A stretch of 64,000 nucleotides of DNA from Psammoneis japonica (Eukaryota): NCBI GenBank assembly GCA_008632985.1, contig QPGO01000218.1:1-64000 (forward strand), given 5' to 3'. Shown one piece after another: positions 7,381-62,380 of the stretch (within the stretch, counting starts at the first letter, position 1; every line of letters starts with the position of its first letter). The notes under the pieces were generated by a model, which had not been told where the DNA came from, did not search any database, and saw only the letters and a program-made list of their open reading frames with translations. The position numbers and the translations under genes are program-made.

Positions 7381-10275
7381 CTACTGTTGGATTGAGAAAA
7401 GAGACTTGAGGTCTCCAATCCTAGCTTTGCGAATCTCTTCGGGCTTGAGCTTCTGCATCGCACCCTTTCCTATGGCCTCCTTCGCTTGTTGCAACGTTAT
7501 CATCCGCTCCTCAATCGTATCTTTCATAACAAAGCGTAGCACTCGAACGGGGCGAGTTTGTCCAATTCGGTGCACCTGCATGGGCGATCAAAGTGTGTCA
7601 GCGACAATGTCAAAACTCACGGAAGGCACAACATGATTAGAACAGAATGGGTCTTACTCTATCCATTGCCTGGTTTTCGACACTTGAGCTCCACCAAGTG
7701 TCCATTAAGTAGCAGTGGTTGGCGCGGTTCAACGTGATTCCCGTGCCAGCAGCATGCAAAGAAGCCAGCATGATCTTGGGACCACCATCAGCGTTGAACT
7801 CCTTCATTGCGGCAATGCGTTGCTTTGCAGACTTGCTGCCGTCGATGCGAACAAATGTCAGACCCAAAGAGGAAAGAAACGGCTCAACCGTATCAAGAAA
7901 CTTTGTAAACTGCGAAAAGATCACTCCCTTCTCGTCGCTCTTCATTTCAGCAAGGGCTTGCCCGAGCGCTTCAATTTTTGGAGAATTTCCCAACTCGTCC
8001 AACAATTCCGATAGAGCTTTCGGGGTCTCGTCCGTCGATGCGGCAGCAACGGCAGCATTCTTTTTGATCATATCTTGGGGCTCGAACTTGCCTCGACAAA
8101 ATGGGCAGAGCCCTCGGCACTGCTCCGACACTTTAGAAAGGCAGGGCTCACAAAACACATGCGAGCACGAACGCAAAATGACGGCAGCACTCTCCTCCAT
8201 CTCATTGAGACAAATGGCGCATTCCGCAGCTTCCGTGTCTTCAAAAGTACCCTTGAGTTTCTTCAAGAGCTCTTCTCCTTCTTCATGCGACAGCTGTCCT
8301 TTGCCTTCGACCTCCTTGAGAATCGATTCAGCTGCTTTGAGGCGCTCACTTGGAACAAGACTTCCGGAGCAGCAACTCTGGCGTATACGGGTAAGGGTCT
8401 CCAGAATGAGAAAATAGTTGGATAAGGCTTTGGCGTCACCACCGGAAAGCGTAGCACGGAACGCAAGCTGAGCGGACTTGAAGAGAGCATCGTGAATCTT
8501 CTTGTGCATGCTCTCTTGAGGAAAGACAATAGACCGAATCTCGACCGTCTTCTCAACAAGATCCAGCTTGCTCTTGTTGCGTCGCAGAGCTACATGTGCC
8601 ATCATTGTCCGAAGACGTGATAGACCAACGCCATCTCCGTTCATTATAGGCTGTGAAATGGCCCGACGGAAAACGGTAGCGTCGGAAAGGGGCTCGACAC
8701 CCATGAACGAAAAGAGGCTTTGAATATCCTCCGGCTTATTCTGAAGCGGCGTACCTGTCAAGCAGAGGCGAAAGTCGTTCTGCAACGCTTTGCAGCCAGC
8801 AAAGGCTCGCGATTTTGTGTTGCGAATGGTGTGGGCCTCATCAAGAATGACTCTGTGAAAAATCTTGGCAAAAATGGAGACTCCGCCCTTGTTCTTGCGT
8901 GCCTTTTTCTTTTTCGGCTGACTGTTTTCCTTGCCCGACTTCTTGGGGAACTCCACTCCATGATCCATCGAAATGGTCCCATACGATGTAATGAGAACAT
9001 CGATGCTATCATCGTTCAACAAGTCATATCGGTCGGGGCCGTGGTAAAATGCAACCTTGAGGTGACCATCTGCCACGTGTTGTTCAATCTGCTGGATCCA
9101 GTTTGGCATGACTGAGACGGGTGAAACAATAAGAGTTGTCTTGTTGGATGACTTGGACGGGTTCGCAAGAATGAGAGCAATCGCCTGGATAGTTTTGCCT
9201 GTGCATTAGAAGTGGAAATAGGGAAAATGTAAGGCGCGATCATTGGGTTTCGAGAACTAGTGCATCGAATAAAACGTACCGAGGCCCATATCGTCAGCTC
9301 TGCAAAACGATAGTAAAACAAACAAAGCGAATGAGTCTATCGATCGTTCGGCCAATTCAAATAAAAATCAAGCACCAATTCTTACAGGATAGATCCCTTG
9401 CATTTGGCGGGCTCGTGCCTCTGCGAAGAGTTGGTAATCTCCGACAACCAAACCTGCTGTCCGCCCTCATATACTTGTTTATAAAATGGTGCAGGTTGTT
9501 GGACTGTTTCTCGCTTGTACAACCAGCGGAGTCCGTCGAGTTGATGGTTGAGTAATTCTGTTTTCAATTCCTTTGGTGGGCCTATCTCTGGCAGATTCTT
9601 GAGCTGTTCCTGACTCATCTTGTCAAAGAGTTCGTCCAGATTTTGCTGCGCACTACGCCAGTCGACAGCCGTCTTGGCAACTTGTACTGACTTCTGTGCT
9701 TTCTTGGAGGAAACCAAGGATCTGTTGGGACTCCAAGACTGACGGTGTTGTTTCAGAATGCTCTGGACTTGCTCGAATAGGGCTTCGTTGCTGCCGTAAA
9801 TCTCAATCGTACAAGGCAGCGCAAACTGATTTCCGCTGTATGGAATCGTGCCGTCAAGTTTGACATTCATGCCGCTATCCATAATGGGCGATAAGACAGA
9901 GGCCGTTGTCTTCTTGATGTGTCCCACCTTGATTCCGGCCATGTTGTCGACCCTAATAGCGTTGCGGTCGTAAGGATTCGAAGGCTCGCGAACGAGCGTG
10001 ACGAACTCCCCTGGGTGTGCGACTCCTGTATAGTAGCGAATGCCGACAACCTGAACCCGGCAACCAATCGTTTGTAAGGTTCCAATAAGATAAACAACAC
10101 ACTACTCACAGCGGGGAAAGCACTTTCAACTTACGTTACAGCTCAAAGATCCCAGAAGCACAGACGGGCTTTCTGCTTCCTCCTCCTCTTCGTGTTGACT
10201 CGAAGTCAGATCAATCATTGCCACGCCTGTCGGCGATTTTAGCGAACTATCTCCTGTAAGGTCGATCGTCGCCAT
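7381..10275 (-). CDS. HLTF/Rad5-like SNF2 ATPase with HIRAN and C3HC4 RING domains, multi-exon
   Basis: HIRAN (VVGIRYY...LVREPSNPYDRNAI..VGHI), Walker A LADDMGLGKT assembled across introns, ILDEAH, LTGTPLQN, RING CAIC..CSHVFCEPC..CPFCR, QAMDRVHRIGQ. ATG at 10275. Confidence 0.92.
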
Positions 10276-13200
10276 GGTCGCGCTGCAGTTTCAACTTATT
10301 GTTGTCTCTGCACTATCTACTTCCTACCGGTAGCTCTTGCCGAAGGAGACCAGCCACAAAAGAAAATGTGAATGGCATCAGCCCCCGCCGGCCCGAAGGC
10401 ATCGTCGTCATTTTTCGCGCATCGACGCGCGTTGGAGGGAGTCAAAAAACGGCGCGCTTTGATTTCATTTGGATCGGCCGGCTCACGTGAAGTTCGATGA
10501 GAACACACTTCACATCTGCATCACCACGCCAATGTGTCGAAAAGTGCAAAATTCCATCCGACGTTCAACATGAGCAATGCAACACCGACAACCACAGACA
10601 CTGACGCATCGTTGCATCGCTCGTTTCAGCAGTTTACGGCCTGCCCTGCATCCAAGAACACAAGCCACGTGCTGTGTCACTCACAATGAAAAGGTTTCTT
10701 GTGCAAGCAAATTGGGGTCACTTTCATGTCAATGTGTGTTTCAGCGGCGTTTTCATTGGTCGGGCCAACAAAGCCAGGATCCTGTGTGATGTGCAATGCA
10801 GAGAGGGAAAGAAATGGCATGCTTTGGATTGGCTTGCTTGTTCTCCTGGTGCTCAATCATGTCCACTCCAGCTGAAGTGTTTTTGTTTGACACGCCATTT
10901 CTGTGCCACATGCCAAAAATTTTGAAGAACCAAAATTGCCACACAACACCACAGAGAAACAAGTGCAGCAATTGGCAATGCAATGCCAGCCTTGACAAGC
11001 ACAAAAAAACACTGATGTGCACTGTCACATTTTGCTTGCTTCACCAGCTTTGTGGCTTGCACACCAGCGAGGAGAGTGCGCAACTCCAAGCTGTGCTTTC
11101 CAAACAAGGTTTAGAAAGAAATCCTTTGAGCCAGGAAAAGCATGCACTTTGCCAGAAGGAAATGTGTTGTCATCATCTGCAACTGTGCTGCCTTTGAGCA
11201 GTCCCTGTGTGCAGTTTCTGCAAGGGACCAAGAAACTTGTGTCTTTTCATCCCCGCCTTTCTTGAGTGCTCTTTTCATCATGCTGTTGTTGACATGCAAA
11301 CAAGGGGCTGCATTTTGGGGCACATTGAGTCCTCAGCTGATGAAGCAATTGCAAATGACAACAAGCCCTTTATGTGCACAGCTCACATGCTGAGAGGGCA
11401 GCTGAAACAGAAACACCAGCCAACCAACCAAAAAGGAGGAGGTGGCACAGTGTTGAAGAAAAATGTTTTGAATCATCTCCTGGTTTCAACACCATCAAAT
11501 GCCAAGATCAACTCATTGCATTGTGCCAACCAGCCAACAACCACCACTGCACTGCTTTGTGCAACAAATGGATCTTTGGCTCCAGCTGCAGCGGCTCACA
11601 CATGCTGCTCTTGCCACCAAGACAAAATGGCTGAACTGGTGTCTTTGCAATGATGTGAGCATGAGTTTGAAAAGGTGTCCAATGGCCCAATGGCACAAGT
11701 GTCTGCTGTGTTCTGAATCAGGCTGCCAAAGGTGGCAAAGAAATTCTTTTACAAAAATGGGAAGCAGAAAAAATTTGATGCAGACAGTTGTTTTTTGTGT
11801 GCGACAAATTGCGGCGCATGCTGCACTCTGTTTTTTCACACTCATGTTCCCAGTCAACAGACTCTTTTTGTTTGTTGGATTCTGTCTCATCATCCTCATC
11901 ATTTTTTCCTCATTTTCTTAATCCAGCTCTTCTTCAGTGTTGCTTTCCTCATCTCTGTGTGGTGAACTCCTCAAAACAGTCCAATGCACCACACTGTCAT
12001 TTTGCTTTAAGAATGGACTTGTGCCCATCATTGTTGAAATGCAGTGGATTTAGATGATGTGCTGTGCCCCTGCTGCAAGTCCCAGGCAGTTGCAGGGAAG
12101 GCAGCAGTTCATTTGGCTCAGTGTGGCTGCTTGTCATTGCAATTTGCTTGAGCAGCCCTCTCATTTGCAACTCAAGTGATTGCCCAGGCATGCACCACCC
12201 TTTGGCTCTTAGAACAGAGCTCAAACATGTTCCCTTGCAAACCCACCCACCAGCTTTCACAGCAGCAGGCAGGTTGTGCTCTCTCCATGCATCATCTTCT
12301 GCAGCTTTGTGGGGAATTTTTCATCCCATTGGAGCAGACAAAAACCATCTTCTGAGTCACAGGACAATGTGCAGCACAACTGCTGGCAACAACCTTCATG
12401 GCAACTTCATTGGTCAAAACATCCAATGCCAATTGTGAGCCACTTGCTTGAACCTCACTGGCAGCATCGCCTTCATTTGTTTGACAAACTTGACAGACTT
12501 GCCAGTCATTCAGCAACTCAAAAACATTGGCCACAACTTGAAAATGCGTTGTGACCACAGGGGCATGTCTCAGCCAGTTGTTGTGAAGGGCTCACATTGC
12601 TTGCCCATGGCATCTTGGCTGCTTCAGTTGAGCCTTGCATGCACAAGAAATTCACCTCATGGCAACCAAGCCAATGGGAAAGTCAGGTTCAACCCACAAT
12701 GAAGTTTGCATGGCTCCTGCTGCAATTCTTGCAGCTTGACTTTGATGGAGCCACTGACAACAATGATGGGATCTTGTGGATGGCAAACTCTTTCTTTCTT
12801 TCTTTCCTCTGTTGGCTTCCAAATTAGCATGCTTTCTGTCACCAAATGCTTCTTTGTTGTTTCCTCCCTTTTAAGATTTTTCAAACACTTGCACAGAGCT
12901 GTGCTCATTGACAATGTTGTTGTTGTCTGTCACCAATGCACTGGCACCAACTCTCTTGTCTTTGTCATGATTCACTCCAGCCACATTGATGGGCTTCATT
13001 TCCTGACAGATGGCTGACTTCATGTGCACTTCAATGCCACCTGCTTCTCCACTGCCATGTCCAGGTGATCACCACAGTGCCCAACATTCCTCTGCCTTCA
13101 GCGGGGACCTTGTTTGGTTGCTGCTGCAGCAATCACAACACATGAACTTGGTTGTTGAGCTGTGATGCCATTCTCTTGGAGCAGCAGCCCACAGGTGCAA

Positions 13201-15810
13201 AAATGCTGTGGCCCAATGACTCAAATGCCTGACAGCACATTTCCATGCAGCAGTTCTTGCCCAGAGTGATCTCATGTGGCATGCGGCAATGCCGCTGTTC
13301 AAAGCAAGGAATGCAGCCATCCTTTGTGAAGACACTGGTCGGTTTGCAAAACTTTGTCAATGGCAGTGTTTTTTGTTTGACAACTGCACCCTTGTTGTTT
13401 TCAGGATGGCATGCATCCATGAACAGAACATGTTTTGAGCAACACTTCACAGACAGACACCTTTGGAAGGAGATTTGGAGCTGGGCAAGAGGGGCAACTT
13501 TTGCACTTGCAGAGCACAGGTCCAATGAAGATGGTCCTGACCAACAACATTGCCACACACAATTGCCACCATTGCATCCTGAGGCTCCTTGGGATGGAGG
13601 TGACTCTCTCATCAAGAAAGGAGCCAACTTCAAACCTCAAAGAAATGCGCCAGTGGTGGAAAGATTGATGCACGCAGCAGAGAGCTCAATTTTCCGGTGA
13701 ACAAAGGAGGGGTCGTCCATGACTGGGAGATCAGAAATGGGAGCACTTGATTGTGTCATGGGTCGGTCATCAAGAATGATGTGTTTCACGTGCAGAAACC
13801 ATGCTGGTTCTTGCAAAAAAATGCCAATGAACAAAGCAAATGGAAGACAGTCCATTGATGTCAAAGAAGGGCACGCGCTCACACTTGTCAGTGCTGCAAC
13901 AGAAGCAGTGCTTTCACCCCATGGAGTGAAGGACTTGATTGGCTGATGGGAACAAAGAGGGTTGTTGAAGATTGAAAAGTGTGCTGGGTGCAAGAAACTC
14001 AGAGATGTGACAAAGCATTTGTTTGGGGTGTTTGCTGAAGTGCACAGAATTTGCACTGTGTCTTGTGAAGATGTTGTGAGCTTTAGAGGCTTGCCACTTC
14101 TATGGTCTGTGATCCATCCATGTCAGTCACGTCAGAGGTGTCTTTGACATCAACCTCACTGAGTCAGCACAAGCTGTTCTTTGTGCGCACACACACGCAC
14201 GCTCGAGATGCAGTCTGACCATCTGTGCATTCCGTGGCTGACCGTGACACACTGGAATCCATGTAGAAATTTCTTGGATCTGCAGAGAATGCAAAAAAGA
14301 TCAACGTGCATGCAACCCACAAGGAGTCAACACCAGTCATTTTCCACTTGGCAACATTGCTTGACATGCTGAAACACCATTGATTGATGGAAATGGCCAG
14401 AATGGTCTTGGGAGACCTGGCAAAATGCAGTCTGAGAAAGGCAACATCAGCACAGGAGCGCACACGCAGAAACACATGCAGGGGTTGCTGGCAGGCAGCT
14501 GCAGCACATTTGTGTGGAGCTCATGCATGGATTTGTTGTGCAGTCATTTGCTGGCTGGTTTCATCTTTCCTTTCCCCATCTTTGGTGATGATCATGTCCT
14601 TTGTGCTGGGGGGTGCAACCACATCATCTGGAAAACATTGTTGCTCTTGTTCAGAACTCACTCTCTCTTGTTCAGAATCCTGTGTTCTTGACAAGTCCTT
14701 GACAATTGTTCACAAAGGGAAATTAACAAGTGTTTCAAGGCTCCAAGTGGGAATTGACAGCCAATGTGGTGAATCGGTCTCATCGTGCACGCACTTTTGA
14801 CAATTTGTCATGTCTGCTCATTTTTGACATGATTTTTGATTCTGTCCACACTCAAGCTGACCTCACAAGTGGGAAACAACAGTCAATGAAACTTGTCACT
14901 TGCATTTGTTTCCACCTTGACAACCGTGTGTTGGCAACAACTTTCTGACATTGTTCATTTTTGACAACAACAGCAACAATGTTCAGTTGTCTTGTTGACC
15001 TGATTGTGCATCGGCTGTGTGCCGCTTGTCATCTGACTTGCAAATGTTCCATTTTGTTGTTTCTACACCAAGTGCCAAAAATGCTCCCTTTTTCCCATCC
15101 TTTTTTTCACATTGCACCAGTTCCTGTTGTCCTTCCCAGTCCCCACACACAATGGGTGTCCTGTTTTGGTCCTCTTGTGTCCTCCCTTGTGACCACTCTT
15201 GCTCTCTCCATGACCCCACTCTTCTTGCTCTCTCTACATTCATCCACAACAGGCAACAATGTCATCATCCTGCATTGATCTGTCTTAAGTTCTCACTGTT
15301 TGGCAGGCCAAAGCATTGTCTGCAACAAGAGAAAACTTTGTGCAAATGACAAGGTTTGTGCATGTCTTGTGTTTCTTACAATCTTGTCTCATGCACAGCT
15401 GCTGCTGCTCACCTTTGTGCCCTCCCCACTGCCCGTCTTCTGTTTTAGCTCAGTCTGCATGTCCAGATGTCTGTGTGCAAAGATTTGCGCAAGTGTTGGT
15501 CCTTTGCATTGATTGCCTGATCTCCATGCATTCGCCACTTGTTTCCTCTTTCTCACCTTGTGTCCCACATTTTGCTCCATCCCATCTGCAATGCCGTTGC
15601 CTGTCCCTGCTGCTCTCATTGTCAGATGTTGGGTGCAACTTGAGTTTGCATTGTTGTGTCTTGCAAGGCAGCAACAACTCATGTTTTTGGCAAAAAGGCG
15701 AGCCTGTCTGTCAGTTGATTCCCATCAGCATCTCTTTTTCAGCAACAGTTTTGTTTAAAAATCAATGTTTGTGTTGTGTCATGATGGTTTGAAGGATTTG
15801 AAACAACTTT

Positions 15811-16177
15811 TGCACTGTGCTCGAAGAACGAGTGTAAACGAAAGTAGAACAGTGTACGAAAAGTGGAAATTGTGAGACCAAATTTTGCTCTGTGATTTTT
15901 GGTTTCTCCGAACGAGTTCTCAATGGCCTGAAGCTTCTGTGCTGCTTCTACAGACAAAAGGCCTTTCGGAGAACATGTTTGTGACAACAGATTGTCCGGG
16001 TGCGATTGCCATTGACACGCAAGATGTCAACATCGTCAATCGATCGCACCTGCAATTCTCGACATCCGATCAACTCTGTGTGATCGTTCTGTCCTTTGCA
16101 CGCATCCACGACTGTGGTGCGATTGACACACAAACAACACACAATCACAAACATGTGTGTGACAGTCGCATGCTGCA
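15811..16177 (-). repeat. 3' LTR of the Gypsy element
   Basis: Ungapped 367-nt match to 20172-20538 with 30 mismatches. Adjacent to the polypurine tract at 16178-16189. Confidence 0.93.
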
Positions 16178-19100
16178 TTCGCCTCCCTAATTGCACATTG
16201 GAGTCATTTGCAAGTGGATTGTTCGACGGACATCGACAGTGTCAACAATGTCTCCACTTTCACTGCATTGTGCCATTGGCAATGACTGTTGTTGTTTTGT
16301 GTGGGCAATGTGGGGCCGTTCCAATTTCCGAATGTCTTTTGAGAGTGACATTGTTTGTTTCTCACTTAACATGCACATGTGTGGCATTGCGTCGAGCATT
16401 CTCATTGACGTTCTTGTTGACATGAACACAAGGACTAATTGTCCTGGAGCAAGTGTTTTTCCTGACCATCGATTGTACACAGCATCGTGCCCAGTGCTTA
16501 ATGTGCGCTCTCAATTGTGGCGTTCACTTGCTTGCTTGTGGATTTCATGCAGTTTGGCGGGCTTGCTTTGTGTGCCATGTTGCTCTGCTGCACTGCCACG
16601 TTTCACAAGTGACAATGAACGATGGTCAAAGACATTGTGACCATTTCGTCTTGACAATCAATCCTGTGATGGTCATGAATTCCATTGTGGATTTTTTTTT
16701 TTTGCACTTCAACCATCTGTCAGTTGGATTTTAATCGTCATTTGGACGTTTCTTTCTGACACACCGGCGTCATTTTGTCATTCCGAAGGCACTGGTTTCG
16801 TGCACTGAGTGGACAAATGTCCATTTTTCTTTTCTTTTTCTAGATCTTTGGCACATCTCGTGTGTCGACATGATGTACATTTTAATGTCTTGCCTCGTAC
16901 ATTGTACAATACAACCGTACGGGTGTTGTGAGATTGTCTTTTGCCAGTGTGAAGTGGATACGTATAATGTACACCAATCTGTCACTGTTTTTTCCTAAAT
17001 CGTCCTTTAAAAAGGCGATTTTATCCTTGTGACATGAGCATTTTTCGATCTCGCTCGCCTCCACGAAAAGTGTTCGTATGATATGTCGCGTCCGACAATT
17101 TGGAGGGAATGTCTTTATCCCGTTTTAACGGTAGGACATTGTCGTAGGATTCAATTTTCTATAGTAAGTCGGCTGATCGCGTCTATCGCGACGATGTTCG
17201 CCTTGCCCTCGTTGTATTCTAATTCGGGACTGAAGTTGTCAACGTATGACTTTGTCCGTTGTGTCTTATGATCCGTATATGTATAAATCTGTTGGCCAAA
17301 CAGTATATTTCGGAATTTTATAAGTGTTTTCACTATGGACAGAAGTTCTTTTTTCCGTTGTAACGTATAATATTGAAATCCGTGTATGATAACAATATAG
17401 TTTTTGATTTGATACGCTCCATATTTTCGGAGACTTTTCGTTCCGTACTTGTACTTTTGCCGTTTGACCTTTATTGAGGTGAATTTGGCTAGTGTTGTAC
17501 AGGAGATCGTTGAGACTTACATGTCTCGATAATGGCAACGTATGACAACGAGATGTCGTAGTGTTCTTTACGTTTTTCTCGTGTTGCGATTGCTTGAATC
17601 GCCTCCATTTTTTTTGTAATCGATTGCATATCGTTACGTATGGAAGTCTTGACAGTTTATTTCAAGTTAAATAGTGAAGGACTTTTGTTGTTAACCTTCT
17701 AAGCGACTGTTCTAGTCGTTTGAATGCCGTGTTAAGCTGTTGCTTGTACAGGTGATGTTTTGAAGTTACTTTTGTCAGGCACAAACGATCACATGTAGTC
17801 GTTCTGACAACTTCAAACCTGTTATGAGTTCACTCAAGTGTTGTATAAAAATATCTGGGGCTCTATAGATTCTCATTGGAAGTCCACAGTGCTCATTTTC
17901 TCCCCACGGCATGATTTTCGTGTGAGCACGACGTGTGCTTTTTTTATTTGACATGGTGGCATTCCATGTTTGAATCAAATAGATTACATGTGTGAAACGT
18001 TCTTGCTTCAATGGTGTTTCCTGAACATTGGGTAAAGGATACACCACCTGTGTGAACCTTATGCTAAGCTTCTGAGTGTCGGATGCGGTCGAACTCGACC
18101 TGTTTTCTTTGGACAATGAGTCTCAGAGCGACTTGTTCAGAGCAACTTCATTCTTAAGACTTCAATCTTTCATAATAGGTCAAACTCCTTTTGATTGGAC
18201 GCCTCCAAAGACTGTGATAGGAGAAGGTTCTCACGCGTCGTGGAATCGCGTCAGATTTTCCACGATGAGATCCACTGATGCTTCCCACACATTCGTCTGA
18301 GGAACTTTTCAAAACGATTTCAACCTCTTAAGAAGAAGATTGAGTTGGTTGTGTTCATTTGGGTTAGATGCATCGCCGCAGTTGTCACTTGATTAAGATC
18401 GATGGCGTGATGGGTGTGAGTCGAGGACCATTGGTTCCGTCATTGACTCCATTCACGGCGTCACATTTTTCAATGTGATCGGTTTTCAGCTTGAAAACAT
18501 CGGCATCGAAGAGTGTATGAACATTCTTCATAAGGTAATTGCTTCTTCCCATTAGATTTCTTCATTTGCGTAGTCCAATGTGACTTGCAGGACTGGACAT
18601 TAAGTCGCGTCCCATGATCACATCATTTGAACCTGAAGAAAATTTGGTGTTTTCAACACACACTGTTTGAATGTCAGCATGCCTTAAATTTCGCATGGTG
18701 AGAACTGAATTCGGTGTTTACTGTCAGTCGTAAAGAGCTCACCCTTGGTTTCCCAAGTTTTTGGTGGCGGATTCTTGTGTTCTCAACTTTCGCACGAATT
18801 TGCGCAAAATTATGGTTGACGATGTTCCGTCATCGACAGGAACACGTAGATGCTTTTTTCTCTCCTTTCCCAAGAAAGCATTCATATAAATGATGACTCC
18901 TGGACTAGCATGAATTATTTCTGCCTTCTTTCTAGGCTTCCCAACATCCAGTGAAGCATGTGGTTCGTGAACAGACCAAAATTGTTCTTCGGATTCAGTC
19001 TGGATCATCCGATCAAATTGGCACTTTTCTTCACTGAGGGCATCAGAATCTGATTCTTTGCCCTCATGCTCTTTTTCTTTGTTCAAGGAACTCGCTTTGA

Positions 19101-20171
19101 GCATTTTTTGAACCGCCTGATCAATCATGACGTTCATCTCTTTTTTTGCGAGCGGCATTTTCGTTGTCGCGACGCGACCGCGTGCGATTGCCATTTGAAC
19201 GGTGCATTTTTGGGTCTCTTTCAGAGTCACCCTTGCACTCTTTTGCCAGTTCATTTTTAGAACAGCTTCAATCCGTGATGCAGGTGTTCTTTTTTCAAAG
19301 ATGAGACCTTGCATTCACTTTGGATTGTTCTGGCACCATGTGGGAGACCATTTTTGGAACCAAATTTGGAACCTTTTTTTATTTTGGAACCAACTGCGCT
19401 GTCAGAGCCTGAGTTGATGTGTTTTTTCGTCACGGACGTCATGAACGACCTTTAGATGACTCAAAACTTAATCAGCTCATCAAGGATGAGTTGCAACAGT
19501 TGATTGTTTTGGACAGTAGACTGATGCTGCCATCCTTGCGGTGCGAGTGACAGCTGATAAATCAGCGCTCGGTTTCCCGCTAGATTCGACTTAGAATCCA
19601 TCTGAGGGTCGCGTGGACTCTCATCATTGACCTCTTGGGTCTAACAGAGGCTTTCTTGCTGTCAAGCAGCTCTGGTTTCTTCAGATCGTCTTGAAAACAA
19701 TGACTCTGATTCTGAAGTGCAATTCTTGGAAAGACATGAGATGTGAGACTCTTGAGGTGCTTTCCAACGGTTCCATCTTGCTCTTGGACTCGAGGCTCGT
19801 TGATTCGGTCTCCAAAACTCTCCAACAGTCTCTCCTTGCACACCAGACGCATTTCTCGGACCTGATCGACTCGGAACTTGCATTCTCTGCAACCATGACT
19901 TGGTGTAGATTTTTTGACAATGCGGTGCACTTGAGAGCCCTTGATCCTTGGGTGCTTGGAACAGACCGCATTAGAGCGAATCCTCTTGTCTGGCAGACGA
20001 AAAACAGCGTTCCATCTTGAGGCACTGCTCGGCTTGAGCTTCTTCCGCTCGGAAATCGATTCCAGCAGAACTGATGCGATTCGTTCCTGTTCACAGAAGA
20101 ATTTGCAAAGGCACATTAGTTAAAAATTTTCATTTTCCGTGCTTTTTACCTTCTGTGGTGTGCACACACAA

Positions 20172-20538
20172 TGCACTGTGCTCGAAGAACGAGTGCAAAC
20201 GAAAGTAGAACAGTGTACGAAAAGTGGAAATTATGAGATTAAATTTTGCTCTGTGATTTTTGGTTTCTCCGAACGAGTTCTCAATGGCCTAAAGCTTCTG
20301 CACTGCTTCTACAGACAAAAGGCCTTTCGGAGAATGTATTTGTGACAACAGATTGTCCGGATACGATTGCTGTTGACACGTGAGATGTCAACATCGTCAA
20401 TCGATCGTATTTGCAATTCTCGACATCCGATCAACTCTGTGTGATCGTTCTGTCCTTTGTACGCATCCACGACTGTGGTACGATTGACACACAAATGATG
20501 TACAATCATAAACATGCATGTAACAGTCGCATGCTGCA
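20172..20538 (-). repeat. 5' LTR of the Gypsy element
   Basis: Ungapped match to 15811-16177, followed by TSD CTTT. No clear primer-binding site is recognisable. Confidence 0.93.
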
Positions 20539-20704
20539 CTTTGATGAATCATTCAGTCATTGATGTCATGCGTGCATTTGGCAAATTTAATTTTGTCACA
20601 TTGGTGTGTTCTTGTTGAGATTGAAACTTTCACACTCATGCTCCACACTCCCAGCTCCAGGACTTCAATCAACACCTTTTTGCCATTTGGTGTGTTCATT
20701 GACC

Positions 20705-21350
20705 ATGCCGCCAAGAAAAAGGAAGAAGCTGAACCCACAAGGTGCTGGCCGCAACAATGCCAGTCACACCAGTGCCGCCAGTGGCCGTGATGGAGGTGGT
20801 GGCCATGGTGGAGGTGGTGCTTGTGGTGTTCAAGAGCAAGGTCAAGGTCCTCCCAGGCAGCCCAGGCAAGGCTCTAGGACAAGCCATTGGTGACATCAAG
20901 GCTCTTTGTCTGGAGCTGCTCCGCCAGCTGGTGACCCATGATCTGCCACTGCTGCTGCAGCCTCCATCAATGAAGAAGCCAATGCCTTTGATGATGTGTT
21001 TGACAACTTTTCCCCTGCACCAGTTCAACAAAAAGATTGTGACTTTCTCAAGGGGTGCAGTGTGAAGTCCTTTGCCACAAGACTCCTTTGCTGCTCAGAG
21101 CCTCTGAGCACCATGCCACCTGTGGCATCAACCCAAAAAAAATGTCTGGCAATGAGTGCAGAATGTGGCTGTTGCTTTGCTGGCAGATGCATGGCCTTTG
21201 CAAAAACCAAGACAAACAGATGTGCAAGCAGCTGCAGCAAAAGCATGAAAAAGCTGGCAGTGCAAAAATTGCTGCTGCCAACAAGAAGATCACCTCTCTC
21301 CAGAAAGCTCAGAAACAGACCCTTTGTGATGCCAGCAAAATGACAATTGC
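20705..21350 (+). pseudogene. Decayed ORF (basic NLS-like and Gly-rich N-terminus), probably transposon-associated
   Basis: MPPRKRKKLNPQGAGR...GGGGHGGGGACG continues in frame through TGA stops into AAAASINEEANAFDDVFDNF. The pattern fits CpG decay of Arg codons. Confidence 0.4.
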
Positions 21351-21489
21351 CAACTTTGTAAAGAAAGTGGGCAACTTGGGCTCAAAGGTGGGTTGTGCTC
21401 TGTCCTTCTGTTCTCTCTTGCTTTTCCATCCAAACAAGAGACAGGGAACACCATTTGTTTCCATTCACTGACTCCCTGCCCTGGTTGTT

Positions 21490-23335
21490 GTCAGCTCCCC
21501 TGGGACACAATGGAGGCACCCGAGGCCATCATCCAAAGACAACTGGGCACTTGCGCTGTCACATGGCCACAGAAAGCTCCCTTGTCTCTGCAGGTGGGGT
21601 GGCTGGGCCAAAGCAAGCCAATCACATCAGAAAGAAAAGGGGCTCCATTGGCAAAAGACAAGGCTTTCTTTCCCAACCATTGTTGTTCTTGCCTCCTCAG
21701 GGGCCTGATGGATTCTCTTGTTGTGCCCATCCCAAGACAACTGAGTGCTTGCACTGTCACACAGATGGCTCCCTTGTGTCTTTCTTGCAAATTGGTTCTT
21801 GGCTGGGCCAAACCTGGTCATGTCAGAAAGACAAGGTGCTGCATTGACACAATGCAAGGTCTTTGCTTCCCAACCATTGGTTTTCTTGTCTCAGCAAGTG
21901 TGGTGTCTGGGGGCAAACCCTGCAATGTCAGAAAGCAAGGTGCTGAATTGACACAAGACAAGGCCTTGCTTCCCAGCCATTGTTGTTGTTGATTGTTCTG
22001 GGACCTTGTGGAGTCACCAAAAGTCATCCCAAGACAACTGATCACTTGCACTGCTGCACAGATGGTTGTCTTGTCTCTGTGGGTGGGGTGGCTGGGCCAA
22101 ACCCAGTCATCAGAGAGACAAGGTGCTGCATTGACTCAAGACAAGGTCTTTGCTTCCCAGCCGATGTTGCTGTTGACTCCTCTGGGATCGAATGGAGTCA
22201 CCAAAAGCTGTCCCAAGACAACTGAGCACTTGCACTGTCGCACAGATGGTTTTCTTGTCTCTGCAGGCTGGCTGGCTGGGCCAAACCCAGTCATGTCAGA
22301 GAAACAAGAAGGTGCTGCATTGACAAAAGACAAGGCCTTCGCTTTCCAACCATTGTTGTTGTTGTGTCTTCTAGAATCCAATGAAGTCACCAAAAGCCAT
22401 CCCAAGATGACTGAGCACTTGCGCTGTTGCACAGATGGTTTTCTTGTCTCTGCAGATGGGGTGGCTGGGCCAAACCCAGTCATGTCAGAGAAACAAGGTG
22501 CTGCATTGATGCAAGACAAGGCCTTTGCTTCCCAACCATTGTCAATGTTGAGTGTTCTGGGATCCTGTGGAGTCACCAAAAGTCATCCCAAGACAACTGA
22601 TTGCTTGCACTGTTGCGCAGATGGTTTTCTTGTCTCTGTGGGTGGGGTGGCTGGGCCAAAGAACCCAGTTGTGTCAGAGAGACAAGGTGCTGCATTGACA
22701 GCTGTTGTTGGCTCCCCTGGGATCCAACAGAGTCGCCAAAAGCCATCCCAAGAGGACTGAGCACTTGCGCTGTTGCACAGATGGTTTTCTTGTCTCTGTG
22801 GGTGTGATGGCTGGGCCAAACCCAGTCATGTCAGAGACACAAAGAGGCTGCATTGACACAAGATGAGGCCTTTGCTTCCTGGCCATTGTTGTTCTTGCAT
22901 TTCTGGGACACAATGGAGGCATCCCAAGCATCCCAAGCACCCCAAGACAACTGAGCAATTGCGCCCCTGTTGCACAGATGGCCTTCTTGTCCTTGCAGGT
23001 GGGGTGGCTGTGAACCAAACAACTCAGTCATGTCAGAGAGACAGGGTGCTGCATTGACACAAGACAAAGCCTTTGCTTCCTGACCATTGTTGTTGTTGCA
23101 TCCTCTGGGACCCATTGGAGTCATCCAAGGCCCTCCCAAGACAGCTGAGCACTTGCACTGTCGCACAGATGTTTCCCTTTTCTCTGCAGGTTGGCTGGCT
23201 GGGCCAAACCCAGTTGTGTCAGAGAGACAAGGTGCTGCATTCTTGACACAAGACAAGGCCTTGCTCCCCAACCACAGTTGTTGGTGTGTCCCTTGTAACC
23301 CACTGGAGTCCTCCAATGCCATCCCAAGGCAACTG
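21490..23335. repeat. Tandem satellite of about 10 diverged units of about 185-190 bp
   Basis: Core cccaagacaactgagcacttgc..gcacagatgg..cttgtctctg..ggtggctgggccaaacccagtcatgtcagag..acaaggtgctgcattgacacaagacaagg recurs near 21532, 21731, 22027, 22212, 22401, 22586, 22746, 22941, 23134 and 23323. Confidence 0.92.
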
Positions 23336-24253
23336 CACACCTCTTTTGCCACATCTGTGGGCCCGATGCTTCCACACCTTGTGCAGCTGGACATCTTCTC
23401 ATTTGTGGAGGAATCACACAAGGGGCTGCTGCCACTCAAGACAAGGCTTGCAGCTTCCCAAATCAGGAGTGCAAAGACATCACAATTGGGCCAACCCACC
23501 TGACAAATGCAGACTGAGTGCATTTGGGATGCATGTCATGCAGGCAGCAACTCAAACCAATGTGCGCATTTGTGGTGATGATGATGATCTAGCTTGGCAT
23601 TTGGCAAATGTTTGCTGGGACATGGAGACACCACCATCAGATGCTCCATTTTAGTTTCTCAAGAAGCAGCCCTGGCCTGTGCATCATGCACCATCCACCT
23701 GGCAAGCATGTTGCTCCAGTTGGAGACACCAAGACATGTCATCAAACTCATCACCAGAATGAACCCCTTGGAACTGAGGATGTGTCACTGGCAAACTCTG
23801 GCCATTGTCTTCATTTGTGGCAATGGTGACAGGAAAGAAAATCAAACAATCCTCCCAGTCTCTGTTGTCTGGTGATGGCTTTCCAAGCAGTGGTGCTGTT
23901 GCTTGCTTTGTTGGATGCAAAGACCATGCCTTGGCAAGTTTAACTCCAAGCTGCTCTTCCTGCCATTCCCAGTGCTTCTCTTGCTTCCTGAAGCACTGGG
24001 GGTGTGCTTTCCAAAGTCATCATCAGGGTTCATGCTAAAATGAAGAAAGAAGAACACTGGAGACACATTTGAAAATGTGTTTGTGCAGCATGCCTGTTGT
24101 GTTGTTGTTGTTGTTGTTGTCACACATCCAACCAGGACAACACAGTGGATTGTGACAGGGGTGTGTCATTGTTGTTGTTGGATGTTAGATCGGAGGATGA
24201 GTTGTGCAGCACCAGCAAGGAAAAGGACAGGTGCAGGAGAAACAGAGCAAAGC

Positions 24254-24447
24254 AAAGGCAGAGAGCTGACAAATGGAAGGAAAAAGGAAGAAATGAAGCT
24301 GTTCTTGAGAGGTTTAAAATGAGGACAAAATGAGCCACACAGGTGATTTAAACAAAGGCAGAGATCTGACAAATGGGAAAAGGGAACAAATGAAGCTGTT
24401 CTCAACAACAGTTCAAAATGAGGACAAAATGAGCCACACAGGTGACT
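24254..24447. repeat. About 100-bp unit, two tandem copies plus a dispersed copy at about 26438-26556
   Basis: aaaggcagaga.ctgacaaatgg...aaatgaagctgttct...aaaatgaggacaaaatgagccacacaggtga is repeated. Confidence 0.8.
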
Positions 24448-27400
24448 TTACATGATGCTTTTGGGCCACGTCCGAGTGGCCATTGCTGTGATTTTTGACA
24501 AAAATGCTGCTGCCTCACAACCCACAAAATCATTTCTTTTTCTTTCCAAAACACAGACAGGCAATGCAACTCAAGTTGACCATAGGATTGGTTGCAGCAG
24601 TGGCAACATTTAACACCAAGTGCAAGAAACACCTGGAGAGCATGGGGAAACATTGCTGTGATCATGAGGTGTGTGTCCCACCGGCAAAGAAAGGCATCTT
24701 CATTCAATGCCTTAAATCATCATCTGATCTTTTTGCTCAATTTCTTTGTTTCTTCTGCATCTCACACTGCAGCAAATGTTTTGAAGGTCAGAAGTGGAAT
24801 GCACTCAGCAGACACCCATGAACTTGGATGGTGCATTTGACAAAGATGACAGAGAAAAGCATGCACTCTTTCTTTGGTTTGCAAGTGCGGCAATCCTTGC
24901 TTGTCACGATCATCTGCAACGATCAAATCGACTCAATGTTTGCATCAATTCATCTAAAAGTTTCAACCAATGGCTCAAACACCACCCTGTGTGACTTGGG
25001 GAGACTGTCCTGGGCAGTCATCAGGTGTTAAAAATTTGTGCGAGTTCCTGAGGAGCCCCAAGCAGTTGGAGATTGGATCCTGTGAACATGCCAGCTCCAA
25101 CCAAATTGATTTGGAGCACGGAGCACAGCTCAAATTGTGCTCATGTTGTCTGCAAAGAGGTGTTTTTAAGTGGCCAATGCTTCTAAGATTTTGGGATCAA
25201 ACTGTAGAAAATGCTGCCAGCAACAATTAAATGACAAGAGCTGGCCAGAGCCCTTCTGTTGGACACCCATTCTCTCATCATTTTGCAGGCACGGAATGAT
25301 GCACAGTTTGTTGACAGCAGTGTGGGTTGAACACTGTGCAACAGATCAGGAAGCATCTGCTGCATGGGAGGACATTTAAAGTGAGCAACAGCAAGAATCA
25401 CCAAGCACAATCAGTGCCATTTAACCACAAAAGGTGGGTTTGATCCAGGACTTGGTGTGAGCATGCAGGCAGTTCTCTCTGCTGGGCTCCAAGCACTGGA
25501 GATCATTGCTGCAATGATGAGATTGGCTTTGTTAAAGAGCAATGTCACAAAGTGGCATGAGCTGGTGCTTTCAATGGCCAATTGCAACTGGGAGTTGTCT
25601 CCCATCTTGTGAGTTGTCTGCTGTGACCAACCCACCCAACAAGAGAATCTGCAGTGGATTCGTCGGACCCCCTTCCATTGCAGTCTCCAAAATGTGTGTG
25701 CATTGAAGGTCCAAGCACTGTGAACATTGTGTGCATGGTGGAGAAGTCAAAGAAGCCAGTGATCACACAGAAACTGACCTGCATCACATCCCTTCTCACC
25801 AACACATGTGCCTTGACTGCTGCTCCCCATGAAATCCAGTGTGTGGAGACCAGTCTTCCGGCATTGAAGTGGTGGCCTCATTTTGATTGCACTGCCAAGG
25901 TCTGTGACAATCATCCATGTCATGTGTGAGACAAGCAAGCCACCCAAAAGAGTTCACATCACACCCAAAAAATTCTTGCAAGCTTGCAAAAGAGGATTTC
26001 ATGATCAAAAGTGCAAGAAAGGGATCAATCCTTCTGCGGAGCCAAAATGACACCGTGCCCATGCCAAATGAAACAAGCAATGCCTGTGAGCACACATTGC
26101 ATGTGAAAAATTCTTACAATGACAAGCAGCTGTTTCACACTTGCCTTGGTTGTTTCACACATCACCATCACACTGCAGCTCTCCTGGCAGAAGTGGAAAA
26201 GAGGACATGACATGTTGGTGCTTCAACAGTGATTTCCTGACTGATTGTTGCAATGACTCTGCCTGCAAAGCTCTCTCAAACAACAGCCAAAGCAAAAACA
26301 CTGTATTTCAAGAGTCTTGACAACTGGTGCATTGTGCAAAGCTTGCTTGAGTGCCTTTCAGAAACAAGCTCACTTTCTTTCACCACAACAGATTGAGCCA
26401 GCCAGCAAACTGCAGCACACAGCAAAAACACTCATCTGAGCCACACAGGTGACTCAAACAAAGTCAGAGATCTGACAAATGGAAGGAAAAAAAAAACAAA
26501 TGAAAGTTCTTGACAAGTGTTTTAAATTTGGACAGAATGATCCTCCACACAGGTGGCTCACAATGAGCAAAAAAGATTCAATCATTTGTGACTTGACAAT
26601 TGCTGAGAAACAAAATTGACAACTGTGTGTGTTGAAGATCTGTGGATGCAGTCAGCATGCATGTGTGAAAATTTCAGTCATTGACAAGTTGCACTCTTGT
26701 CAAGCACGGAAACATGTTGCAGACAATTGGCGCATTTTCCAACCATTTGACAAAAGCTTTTTGAATCTCTGGGGTGACTTCATGAGGGCATTGACAAGGT
26801 TGCACTGAAGACCACATGATGCCTTCCTCTTGTCCTTGACCAAGGCTGCTCCAACATTTTTGCTTTTTTTCATTTGGCAATCAATGCACAGTGCTTTTGT
26901 TTGCACCCAGCACTTTTGCAAAGGTGTTGAAAAAACCTCAGGTGTGCCGTTTGACTTGTGGAGAAAATCAAAGATTCCTGCTGCAGCAGAATGGACAAAA
27001 GATCTTTTGTTGTCAGCACAAAAATCTTTGCCATCGTTGTTGGCATGCACCAACATTTTGCCCAGCTGCTTTGTATTTGCGTGGCAGCTTCCATTGCTTT
27101 GGGCAACACAAAAATGCAAACCTGGACAGTCAAAGCAACATCAGGCATGGACAAAGTGCAGAGCACCAAGGCCACAGCTTGTTGCTCAGGGACATTGGTG
27201 GAGGACAAGATGGCATCTCTTGTTCTTGTGGCAGCCAGCATGGCACTGTGCTTGTGTTGACAATCTTTGTGGGTTTTTACAAAATGAGCCAATGGCTCTG
27301 TCTGTGGCATGAACTTTGGTGGCAGTTGCCAAGTCAGAAGGAGTGGTGGTGTCCAAAGGAGCAGCAGAGGGAGTGACGGCGGCATTGTCAGAGGTGAGCC

Positions 27401-28946
27401 ATGCTGTTGGAGCAAGTGGCTGCATGTTGCAGATTCAGCAGGAGCTGGGAGGGCCAGGATTTCCACGGAAAACACAGATCTTTGCATTTGCAACTCCAAA
27501 CTGCTTCTTCTCTTTGTCATGGGGCATTGGAGTGAGAAGTGAAAAGGAAATGGGCAATGCAGCAGATGTGTGCTCCAGCCCCAGGCAGGACTCTGTGTGA
27601 CATGAGCCTGCAAAGTTCCACACTGTGGCCAGTGGATGCACTCATCATTCCAGCAAAGCCACACAGAAATGTGTGGGCAACATGCGGCACATGGCAAAAA
27701 AACATCAATGTCACAGCTCAGCAGCATGAGGCCCCACCTGGCTGGAGCTGGAGTGCATCAGCAGAAGAGGAATGTTTTTGGTGCACTCAACAGAAAACTT
27801 GTCACTTCAGTGGCTGTGAAAATTGAGTGCCAAGAGTGACTTCATCTTAGCTGGGGGCAAAGAACAAACACACAAGCTCCAAAAAACGAAAAAAGTGGCT
27901 GTGTGGCCACCATCTTTTGTGCAGAAAAGACAACACATCAAAACCACGTTGTTTGGCACATCAAACTCCTCTTCAATTTGTCATTTTTTTAAATTGCATG
28001 GCAAGCTCACATGAAAAATGCAAAGTTTTGTGCACACTCACATCTTGACTTTGTAAAAATCAAAAACTGAAGGAGCCAAACACAAATGGGCCATTTGATG
28101 GATTGTGTGCTGTCCAAGTGTGTCGCCTGCTGGAGCTGGAGCCAGCCCTTTGCTCTCTTTGCTCATGAGGCAGCAAGCCAGAAATGGCACCATTGGTCAA
28201 AGTGCTGTTGGGCACAACAAAGCAGAAGAATGTGAAATTGAGAGAGTCAACAAGATTGAGAAGGTGTTGTTGTTCTGTGATCTTTTGTCTTTGTCATTGC
28301 AGCAAGTGTTGCTGCTCATTGACACTTAAAAGATCTTGATCCTTGAAAGAGCTCCAGCAGTTTTTTCATGAAGTGCCAGGCCTCTGATGGTTTTTGTCCA
28401 GACCTCAGACCTTGCAAGTCATGATGGGCGTGCAGAGCAGCAGCCGCACCCTGGTCTTTGTTCCTGTTTTGAACAAACAGAGTGAGCAAAACAAGCCTCC
28501 CACTGGGGTGGCACTGACCACTGCTCAGCATGCTCCATGCCACATTGTTGCGCTGCACACAGGGTTGAGCACAGGGTGCATGTGAGCCACTGACACATTG
28601 GTGCACATGACCAAAGCACATCTCCGGTGGTCAAAGTGCGCCACTGATGTCCAATGCTGTGCACATTGTTCATGAACAAAGGATGGTGAAACATCGTTGC
28701 TGACAGCACAAAGTCTCATCTTTTTTGCAGCAGAGTCACTGCGCAAGTTCCCAACCACACCAGAACTCTCAATGAGTTGATGCAAGATCTCTTAAACTTA
28801 GACCTCGTGTCTGCTTGTCTGCTAGTCCGATCCCCGCCGCGCCGCACTTGTGTCGAAGTGGGTGGGTTTCGATTGCGACATGGCTGGCACAATGGCGCAC
28901 GGCACGATTGTGAACGTTGCCTTCGTGGAATGCATCCTTCTTGGAC

Positions 28947-43079: not shown

Positions 43080-43410
43080 CCCACATGCCTCATCAATGCT
43101 CTGTGCCCCAGTGGTTCACCACCCTTGATGCCTTTGGGGACCATGCCTTTGCCTGCAAAGGAGGTGATCCAAGTTGTCCTCCAAAGGTGATCATGATGCT
43201 GTCTTCATGAGATCATGTCACACAAACTCCAGGGGTGCCTCTTGCAAAATCACGTCACTCACCCAATGACATCCACCTTGAGCCTGCACACCTTCTCCTG
43301 AATCACCCTCTTCTCCACCCAGCCGATGTTGACATTGGCACCCCTCCTCTCACTTCCCTTGCCACCCCCTCCCACCATCATTGCATTGCTGGTGATGTCG
43401 GCCCATCCCC
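43080..43410 (+). mobile_element. Remnant of a restriction-like endonuclease domain of a CRE/NeSL-type non-LTR retrotransposon
   Basis: LDAFGDHAFACK followed by HLEPAHLL..LLHPADV (compare RPAD) and IAGDV. Confidence 0.55.
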
Positions 43411-43422
43411 AAAGCCCCCCCC

Positions 43423-43437
43423 NNNNNNNNNNNNNNN
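43423..43437. other. Assembly gap (15 N)
   Basis: Run of N after a poly-C tract. Confidence 0.99.
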
Positions 43438-62100: not shown

Positions 62101-62380
62101 GCTGATGCTCTGTGAGCAAACATTGCTCCCACCTTTGTTGCACTCTACACAACCATGGCCTACACTGTTGTGTTGTGCTTCAAGCCATTGTGCCAAACAT
62201 TGCCACTGTGTTCTGAGCCACCTTGCTGGTCTCCAGGGGCAGGAAGGAGCAGGCACCCCCACCAGGCAGACAAGTGGCTCTGGGGCATTGGGGGCAGTTC
62301 ATCTTGACACTTGACAACCATGCATGATGACTCCACAGCATCATGTTGCTTGGAACAGCATAGAGTGACAACAACAGTGT
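59150..62380 (-). mobile_element. Possible highly decayed Helitron-like (PIF1 helicase-bearing) element
   Basis: Fragmentary minus-strand peptides YIIDES.GQ (about 59730), GSFGG (about 59640), LFPTREDVN (about 59330) and RHCSWEAVW (about 61180). No intact frame. Confidence 0.35.
60350..62380. other. TpA-depleted block 3
   Basis: Same CpA/TpG-rich, TpA-poor and CpG-poor signature. Normal composition resumes at about 62450. Confidence 0.8.

Follow-up and report, generated by a model that had tools for sequence, protein, structure and literature searches.

Flank-dependent loss of TpA from repeat-rich blocks in a contig of the diatom Psammoneis japonica

We analysed a window of 64,000 nt from the diatom Psammoneis japonica (positions 1–64,000 of contig QPGO01000218.1, assembly GCA_008632985.1), in which stretches of normal gene-carrying sequence alternate with blocks of extreme dinucleotide make-up. 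In these blocks, which are probably repeat-derived, and unannotatable, A.T to G.C transitions on one strand or the other have turned TpA into TpG or CpA, with a loss of about 95% of the TA sites. The flanks of the dinucleotide are read in the process: with R for purine and Y for pyrimidine, RTAY sites (ATAT, GTAC, ATAC) are lost first, sites with mixed flanks next and YTAR sites last, TTAA being almost immune. On balance, this pattern probably reflects a flank-reading hypermutation of TpA that follows insertion, attacks each strand independently with a preference for T-A-Y and proceeds by adenine deamination in DNA, with CpG loss as a separate process.

Blocks of extreme TpA depletion

In 1-kb windows outside the depleted blocks, the observed/expected ratio (o/e) was 0.5–0.78 for TA, 0.8–1.2 for CG and 1.05–1.25 for TG/CA, whereas in the five block groups it was 0.00–0.14, 0.00–0.30 and 1.7–2.2, respectively. 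The block borders were sharp (10341–15810, 20539–28792, 37709–49790 and 60336–62360), and the loss of TpA, together with clustered enrichment of CpA and TpG, was confined to these regions. TpA was down about 20-fold in the blocks and CpA/TpG were up, while G+C stayed at 0.43–0.52 (about 47–51%), as expected if the G.C gained through TA to TG/CA offsets the G.C lost through CG to TG/CA. An origin of the blocks as natively TA-poor DNA was considered and rejected. The blocks, to which no strand is assigned, and the features within them are as follows.

10341–15810: block B1; 10341–10770 lost TA only, with normal CpG, and 10771–15810 lost TA and CG
20539–28792: block B2; TA and CG both lost; continuous with B1 before a long terminal repeat (LTR) element inserted; a moderately repeated family
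21473–23335, plus strand: tandem array inside B2, about 10 copies of a ~189-bp unit, 72–86% alike
37709–44423: block B3; TA and CG lost
44424–45969: zone with TA lost and CpG kept, containing an intact 235-aa open reading frame (ORF) at 45170–45877 (plus strand)
45970–49790: block B4; 45970–49309 lost TA and CG, and 49310–49790 lost TA only
60336–62360: block B5; depleted block

In B1, o/e was 0.00–0.14 for TA, 0.04–0.30 for CG and 1.8–1.9 for TG/CA. Most of this block (10341–13750) was covered by one 4,228-nt contig from the source sample that carried 2 other letters, at a depth of ~67, which is the flanking single-copy level, indicating that consensus building did not create the depleted sequence; the source-sample sequencing run is not independent of the sample used for the assembly. 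Part of B2 (20.8–25.1 kb) is repeated, with a source-sample contig depth of 1,000–2,450. An assembly gap of 15 N lies at 43423–43437 inside B3.

Three zones lost TA at normal CpG density (10341–10770, 44424–45969 and 49310–49790). They sit at the edges of, or between, fully depleted blocks, and two of them lie upstream of seemingly intact genes, namely a HIRAN-SNF2 gene ending near 10101 and an ORF at 49773–50666.

Flanks of the surviving TpA sites

The original prediction had counted, by eye, about 20 surviving TAs in 10600–15800, roughly 12 of them YTAR and none RTAY. An exact recount reproduced these numbers: the 20 TAs comprise 12 YTAR (6 TTAA and 6 TTAG), 7 YTAY, 1 RTAR and no RTAY. The YTAR excess was significant both against the share in host sequence (202/1159 or 17.4%; 29.3 kb with 1,159 TA; binomial p = 2e-5) and against the first-order Markov expectation of the interval itself (31.5%; p = 0.008), and the probability of finding no RTAY was 0.0007 and 0.014 under these two baselines.

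The same bias was seen throughout the window. YTAR made up 12/20 of all TAs in B1, 24/34 in B2, 10/12 in B3, 8/14 in the zone 44424–45969, 12/16 in B4 and 5/10 in B5, with RTAY counts of 0, 2, 0, 1, 0 and 1 in the same order. Pooling the depleted blocks (27.8 kb) gave 106 TAs, made up of 71 YTAR (41 TTAA, 25 TTAG/CTAA and 5 CTAG), 31 mixed and 4 RTAY, compared to 202, 603 and 354 among the 1,159 TAs of host sequence (chi2 = 145, p = 3e-32). Both ends of this distribution differed from the host, with YTAR enriched (71/106 against 202/1159; Fisher odds ratio 9.6, p = 3e-26) and RTAY reduced (4/106 against 354/1159; p = 3e-11). The block YTAR share also exceeded the share of Y..R flanks around TG/CA in the same blocks (21.5% of 6,308; chi2 = 127.7, p = 2e-28). 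Equal depletion of all NTAN classes after normalisation, the outcome named beforehand as contradicting a context preference, did not hold, the classes being unequal under the host, Markov and TG/CA-flank baselines alike.

Survival of the individual tetranucleotides in the blocks, relative to their density in host sequence, was as follows.

TTAA: 0.86
TTAG/CTAA: 0.25
GTAA/TTAC: 0.11
CTAG: 0.11
CTAC/GTAG: 0.05
ATAA/TTAT: 0.03
ATAC/GTAT: 0.018
ATAG/CTAT: 0.017
GTAC: 0.013
ATAT: 0 of 97

Thus, ATAT occurs 97 times in host sequence and never in the blocks, whereas TTAA occurs 50 times in the host and 41 times in the blocks. Since these two motifs are equal in composition and opposite in fate, AT-richness or melting cannot be the cause. 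The protective context stretches further, into T-runs 5' and A-runs 3' of the TA: among surviving sites, T accounts for 56% of the second and 40% of the third base on the 5' side, mirrored as A on the 3' side. An A at +2 was protective as well, with rates of 1.0 for TACA, 2.7 for TACC and 6.0 for TACT, all survivor-based and resting on small counts.

Mutations after insertion in a young LTR retroelement

B1 and B2 are separated by an LTR retroelement (15811–20538) that has TG..CA ends and is flanked by a 4-bp CTTT duplication. Its parts, all on the minus strand, are listed here.

15811–16177, minus strand: LTR5 (named in plus coordinates) of the young LTR retroelement; 18/22 inferred TA sites changed, all CpG intact
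16178–20171, minus strand: internal part, with patchy TA loss and CpG intact
17154–17516, minus strand: weak RNase H remnant (PF17917, E 3.2e-5, 24.5 bits against a cutoff of 24.8, sub-threshold)
20172–20538, minus strand: LTR3, the second LTR; 8/22 inferred TA sites changed

The two LTRs differ at 30 of 367 positions, all by transitions and none by transversion (the alignment lists 31 differences, one of which is a flanking column outside the LTR). TA/TG/CA interchanges account for 26 of the 30, with 13 TG and 13 CA products. At seven sites one copy has CA and the other TG, indicating that one ancestral TA was hit independently, on opposite strands, in each copy. Changes were found at 26/44 TA copies and at 0/40 CpG copies (20 CpGs; Fisher p = 3e-10), and the share of changed base pairs was 29.5% within TA, compared to 1.4% per copy-site for A/T positions elsewhere. 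Estimated from this footprint, the TA hazard was 0.89 per site, with an upper bound of 0.9% at G/C sites. The products in LTR5 interleave (8 TG and 10 CA in 9 runs, with 9.9 expected) and form no strand-coordinated tract. The LTR pair thus shows a process that targets DNA once the element has inserted, hits both strands and is almost confined to TpA.

The remaining four differences (15878, 16000, 16049 and 16050; alignment columns 99, 221, 270 and 271) lie within two bases of a changed TA. All four have T/A in LTR3 and C/G in LTR5, and three are A followed by T on the changed strand; they may reflect relaxed specificity or clustered hits.

The TA load was unequal between the LTRs (18/22 in LTR5 against 8/22 in LTR3; p = 0.005). 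The interior was patchy too, being strongly depleted at 16178–16810, undepleted at 16811–17810 and partly depleted at 17811–20171, with a TA o/e of 0.66–1.0 in the undepleted kilobase against 0.05–0.5 in the neighbouring interior. Targeting seems to work in sub-kilobase patches rather than on whole elements.

The direction of change was examined using source-sample contigs, which were placed at 80% likeness so as to catch paralogous copies; on stretch X1, 6,876 contigs were placed, giving 1,791 transition places and 700 transversion places. Summed contig depth on the LTR element was 9,300–28,700 (9,300–14,900 in the interior) against ~67 in the flanks, a figure that is not a copy number. At no fewer than eight LTR places, all in TA context, 42–87% of the summed depth has T/A where this copy has C/G, forming the majority at six, and this retention of T/A by family contigs supports A.T to G.C polarity. 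Polarised events were drawn from 40 of 2,501 difference rows, a handful of which were usable.

At 20211, 20490, 20492 and 20503, both LTRs share a derived C, and 44–80% of the summed family-contig depth has T, again in TA context. Since the derived base is common to both LTRs, some changes are older than this insertion; the copy that transposed apparently carried part of the mutations beforehand, and partial hypermutation apparently does not at once stop transposition. A scan of metagenomes for a conserved LTR motif gave 0 matches.

A per-strand model of TpA loss

We modelled the depletion by letting each strand be hit independently, with one rate for each base 3' of the changed A. This model fits all ten NTAN classes (X2 = 4.7, 6 degrees of freedom, p = 0.58) and is far better than uniform depletion (likelihood-ratio test (LRT) 187.8, p = 2e-40). 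Fitted rates for a 3' T, C, G and A were 3.01, 1.97, 1.17 and 0.11 against the host baseline, 3.40, 2.06, 1.10 and 0.68 against the LTR-element (transposon) baseline, and 2.61, 1.62, 1.27 and 0.49 against the internal Markov baseline. The order T > C > G > A was the same in all three, and the T/A contrast was unstable, ranging from 5- to 27-fold.

In the mechanism that we favour, each strand would be attacked independently at a rate that depends chiefly on which base follows the changed A on its 3' side, in the order T > C > G > A, the preference for 5'-T-A-Y over TAR being around 4-fold and that for T over A 5- to 27-fold depending on the baseline. The chemistry would be enzymatic deamination of adenine in DNA to inosine, which is read as G, by a putative deaminase aimed at silenced or foreign DNA, and CpG decay in the older blocks would be a separate, much slower process.

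Direction of change and the identity of the edited base pair

Surviving sites give the sum over both strands, such that a pyrimidine 3' of the changed A, a purine 5' two bases upstream and recognition of RTAY as a duplex all predict the same survivors. Only the direction of individual changes separates them, and here the data are less generous to a T-A-Y preference. The original prediction rested in part on 9 of 12 LTR changes falling at TAY, a count that is correct and at the same time uninformative, because 70% of strand opportunities are already TAY. Events per opportunity in the LTR pair, by +1 base, were 5/18 for A, 9/34 for C, 1/8 for G and 11/28 for T.

Several observations weigh against the favoured mechanism. 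Taking all LTR events, 20/26 fell at TAY, which does not differ from the 70% available (binomial p = 0.31), and TAA was not avoided (5/18 against 9/34 for TAC). At LTR sites with TAA on one strand only, 5/9 changes were on the other strand; when read-derived events were included, a hand tally gave 8/13, which rejects the 27-fold T/A ratio obtained with the host baseline (p = 0.0003) and is compatible with a ratio of about 4 (p = 0.18) or with 50:50 (p = 0.58). The ratio of RCAR (equivalent to YTGY) to YCAY products, which is 1.53 in old blocks compared to 1.21 in the host, leans in the predicted direction, but it is confounded in old blocks by CpG-derived TG/CA, and the TA-only zones show no product-direction signal (1.07 against 1.21). 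Every rate rests on proxy baselines for the ancestral block composition, and a chemistry directed at T would leave the same sequence outcome as deamination of A.

The tandem array in B2 has 16 column pairs dimorphic for CA/TG. Its tallies (R..R 36 CA to 27 TG; Y..Y 11 CA to 21 TG) lean as predicted and were set aside as evidence, since common descent of the units, native CA/TG and CpG ancestors all confound them.

Informative LTR events went towards the TAY strand in 6/10 cases, and a pure -2 model, in which the upstream base alone decides, was rejected (6/10 against 0.17, p = 0.003). The 5'-TAY target preference put forward originally thus stands as the best single-flank model and is unproven, given that 6/10 also fits 50:50. 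Likewise, of the suggestion that the context bias looks enzymatic, the bias itself has proved real, large and consistent with a sequence-reading process, and the supporting evidence from the LTR pair has not proved significant (20/26 against 70%). Which flank governs which base pair is weakly resolved by these data.

These direction data bear most on a reading in which an enzyme or complex acting on double-stranded DNA recognises the palindromic R-T-A-Y as a whole, through shape or the minor groove, with TTAA refractory, and changes either A.T pair about equally. An even split of directions is what such recognition predicts, and the data fit it (6/10 and 8/13, p = 0.58), TAA edits are as common as TAC edits in the LTR, the TA-only zones lack a product-direction bias, and survivors cannot separate the two readings. 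Log-survival is, however, additive over the two flanks (p = 0.58), which two attacks independent of each other and each governed by one flank should produce. In addition, the old blocks do have an excess of RCAR over YCAY, and to our knowledge no natural adenine deaminase acting on double-stranded DNA has been described. We regard duplex recognition as doubtful, while taking it to be the strongest competitor to independent attack on each strand.

A more distant candidate is modification of the T in R-T-A, for instance hydroxylation by enzymes of the 5-hydroxymethyluracil (hmU) or base-J type, followed by mispairing or mis-repair to C, with a purine preferred 5' of the T. Because the outcome equals deamination of A on the other strand, all context and LTR counts fit such thymine-directed chemistry equally well, and hmU in dinoflagellates is enriched at TpA. 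No known pathway, though, gives a clean T to C change so specifically, whereas inosine gives A to G directly, and no thymine modification of this kind was found documented for diatoms in the literature searched. This explanation appears unlikely.

Flank bias as a property of the forward rate

In the CpG-intact LTR element, YTAR, mixed and RTAY counts were 12/29/30 in the undepleted kilobase, 21/31/12 in the partly depleted part and 5/3/2 in the strongly depleted part; elsewhere they were 10/8/1 in TA-only zones and 61/23/3 in old blocks. Class counts differed between the undepleted and partly depleted parts of the element (p = 0.007; RTAY against YTAR, p = 0.0017), and fitted rates for its young part were 0.22 for A, 0.25 for G, 0.85 for C and 0.97 for T, approximately a 4-fold advantage of Y over R. 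That the bias grows with depletion inside one CpG-intact element indicates a property of the forward rate, not re-creation of TA; moreover, CpG being intact there, C to T change is negligible, and re-creation of TTAA from TCAA or TTGA cannot explain the bias.

These results speak against the view that surviving TAs are new, created by C to T at TCA and G to A at TGA, or that they reflect an ancestral TTAA excess in the invading DNA. Precursors are plentiful, with CA/TG enriched about 1.9-fold in old blocks; TCG is the most depleted CpG context, which would fit a TC-preferring C to T activity; and TTAA is denser in the undepleted kilobase of the LTR element (6 per kb) than in the host (1.7 per kb). 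Against this, the bias is already present where CpG is intact, both in the TA-only zones (10/8/1) and along the LTR gradient, the order T > C > G > A persists with the transposon baseline, and TCAA+TTGA are about as abundant as ACAT+ATGT, yet 41 TTAA and 0 ATAT survive. We therefore consider new or ancestral TAs a very unlikely source of the pattern.

Least probable of all is that RNA was edited from A to I by an ADAR-like enzyme and the changes fixed by reverse transcription, or that modified bases, which can give systematic miscalls in some long-read data, produced an artefact of sequencing or base calling: the LTR copies of a single insertion are unequal, changes on the two strands are interleaved, single-copy-depth blocks with no retroelement signature are also affected, and source-sample contigs, from the same sample as the assembly, reproduce 10341–13750 with 2 other letters at a depth of ~67. 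ADARs do favour a 5' U, and their motif is 5'-UAG (review PMC10661471); here the order is TAT > TAC > TAG. ADAR-type hyper-editing fixed by retrotransposition was accordingly rejected, as the LTRs differ, strands are interleaved and TAG is slower than TAT and TAC.

Relation to known hypermutation systems

The closest counterpart is found in mutation-accumulation lines of the chlorarachniophyte Bigelowiella natans, where 231 of 302 de novo mutations lay in two integrated viral regions, all but one of the 231 being A to G or T to C and all of those at TpA, with a mutation rate raised ~1000-fold as measured in real time; 124 TpA-depleted, CpA+TpG-enriched clusters were reported and an ADAT2-like candidate enzyme was proposed (Mettrop et al., bioRxiv 2026, 10.64898/2026.01.13.699255). 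The terms 'CpG', 'context', 'flanking' and 'trinucleotide' do not occur in the main text of that preprint. As far as its main text goes, the two cases share near-exclusive A.T to G.C change at TpA, giving TpG and CpA, and sharply bounded regions, of probable repeat origin here, with long-term TpA depletion and CpA/TpG clusters, transposable-element domains being enriched in the depleted sequences of B. natans. They differ in that the host here is a diatom (a stramenopile) and there a rhizarian, that depletion here is near complete (TA o/e 0.00–0.14), with equally strong CpG loss in older blocks, that the rate here is estimated from footprints and there was measured in lines, and that the flank preference is described here only.

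Our findings thus extend a kind of hypermutation that was described only very recently to another lineage, adding a flank fingerprint and a timing relative to CpG decay. TpA-directed hypermutation has so far been described only in that one 2026 preprint, in a rhizarian alga, with no mechanism and no flank signature in the main text, and no diatom precedent was found in the literature searched, which did not cover subscription journals. That a diatom carries this footprint too points to a more widespread defence in algae of the SAR group (stramenopiles, alveolates and Rhizaria), and here it is near saturation, with a time series running from a young LTR element to old blocks. It is conceivable, though we advance the idea only tentatively, that diatoms and chlorarachniophytes share an old defence, an 'adenine RIP', which deaminates adenine in duplex DNA at 5'-(R)TA(Y)-3' of invading elements, with TAT and TAC fast and TTAA refractory, ahead and independent of cytosine-methylation decay. 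If this were true, the enzyme would be a natural editor of adenine in DNA and could be traced through its motif. The hierarchy of loss by flank (ATAT, GTAC and ATAC first, TTAA spared) is a concrete biochemical fingerprint that argues against simple melting or AT-richness; ATAT and TTAA form a substrate pair for testing candidate deaminases, and the hierarchy can be compared with the 231 mutations in B. natans.

Repeat-induced point mutation (RIP) of ascomycete fungi, a functional analogue with reversed chemistry, is likewise a post-insertion, DNA-level transition hypermutation of repeats, set by dinucleotide context, acting on both strands and serving genome defence. RIP replaces C by T, chiefly at CpA, increases both A+T and TpA, and needs the DNA methyltransferase-like RID/DIM-2 in the premeiotic dikaryon. 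Here, in contrast, the change is A.T to G.C at TpA, TpA falls and G+C stays near 47–51%. A further possible likeness is spill-over: by analogy with RIP leaking into flanks, the TA-only zones adjoining the blocks may have arisen as the TA process reached into neighbouring sequence.

The natural target of TadA is A34 of tRNA-Arg(ACG), and the TadA/ADAT motif is A-C-G after U33, as given in the same review (PMC10661471). As with TadA, ADAT2-ADAT3 and TadA-derived base editors, which convert A to I with U or T directly 5' of the target, a T lies 5' of the changed A here. Evolved TadA accepts DNA, and the natural TadA/ADAT substrate is an RNA hairpin loop, whereas the substrate here is duplex genomic DNA on both strands. 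T at +1 (3.0) does no worse than C (2.0), and a G at +2 brings no advantage. The suggested link to the U-A-C-G loop of the TadA substrate accordingly did not hold up in detail: TAT is at least equal to TAC, and TACG (3.05) is similar to TACC (2.74) and below TACT (6.0), by survivor-based rates from small counts. ADAR hyper-editing resembles the present case in its A to G outcome, its preference for a 5' U/T and its targeting of repeats. ADAR acts on RNA, however, and would mark one strand, whereas here LTRs of one insertion differ and the order is TAT > TAC > TAG > TAA. The context order found here (TAT at least equal to TAC, then TAG and TAA, with no +2 G preference) exactly matches neither the ADAR nor the TadA/ADAT motif.

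CpG loss as a probable separate process

In old blocks, CG o/e is 0.00–0.30 and CpG has been lost as CG to TG/CA; at 25107, 25112, 25171, 21706 and 23700 in B2, this copy reads TG and other copies still have CG. The loss has a mild flank effect according to the base 5' of the C (T 1.14 > A 0.84 > C 0.68 > G 0.59; LRT p = 5e-6). Surviving CpGs are biased in context, GCGC being kept most (0.39) and TCGA least (0.11), with T-C-G lost fastest, a feature reminiscent of the TCG preference seen when certain basidiomycetes undergo RIP-like mutation.

CpG loss is separable from TA loss in time and space, as seen in the LTR pair and in the TA-only zones. The decay of 5-methylcytosine in methylated transposons resembles the loss of CG to TG/CA in older blocks, including its mild flank effect, and would explain the CpG half only, as 0/40 CpG copies against 26/44 TA copies changed in the LTR pair. 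The loss of CpG is probably a separate and much slower process of 5-methylcytosine deamination in silenced repeats, as far as sequence footprints indicate. In single-copy-depth parts of the depleted blocks, source-sample contigs differ from the window by TA/CG against TG/CA at 12825, 14790, 15260, 26949, 27206 and 28368; these differences may be allelic, which would make both processes recent or ongoing.

Coding content of the window

The blocks lose TAA and TAG stops together with all protein similarity, so that long false ORFs arise, a point of concern for annotation; in the tandem array at 21473–23335, long spurious ORFs occur on both strands, as TAA and TAG are absent. A Pfam scan of 83 block ORFs (stop to stop, 110 aa or longer) gave no family above cutoff, the sub-threshold RNase H match lying in the LTR element. 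Matches to Rad52, MSG, DUF6549, S30AE and HPr kinase in block ORFs fell short of their cutoffs and were treated as chance; the window ORFs scanned yielded no deaminase domain. The ORF at 45170–45877 (plus strand) had no Pfam match, and Atlas gave only diatom hypothetical-protein clusters, with a feature score of 0.96 to one such cluster, in which Bacillariophyta is the phylum recorded most often (phylum known for 2 members).

Host genes in the window encode YCF48, AcnX (in three pieces), a HIRAN-SNF2-RING helicase, a pseudouridine synthase, a DEAD helicase, a leucine-rich repeat protein and a plastid-type FtsZ. The YCF48-like ORF shares 84–88% identity with many diatom proteins, its top named matches being from Chaetoceros tenuissimus and MMETSP diatom transcriptomes. 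A Rad5/HLTF-like host gene (7637–10101, minus strand; domains HIRAN, SNF2, RING and Helicase_C) adjoins block B1 and has ordinary CpG, and the 1-kb interval 8001–9000 inside it has a TA o/e of 0.34, low for host sequence.

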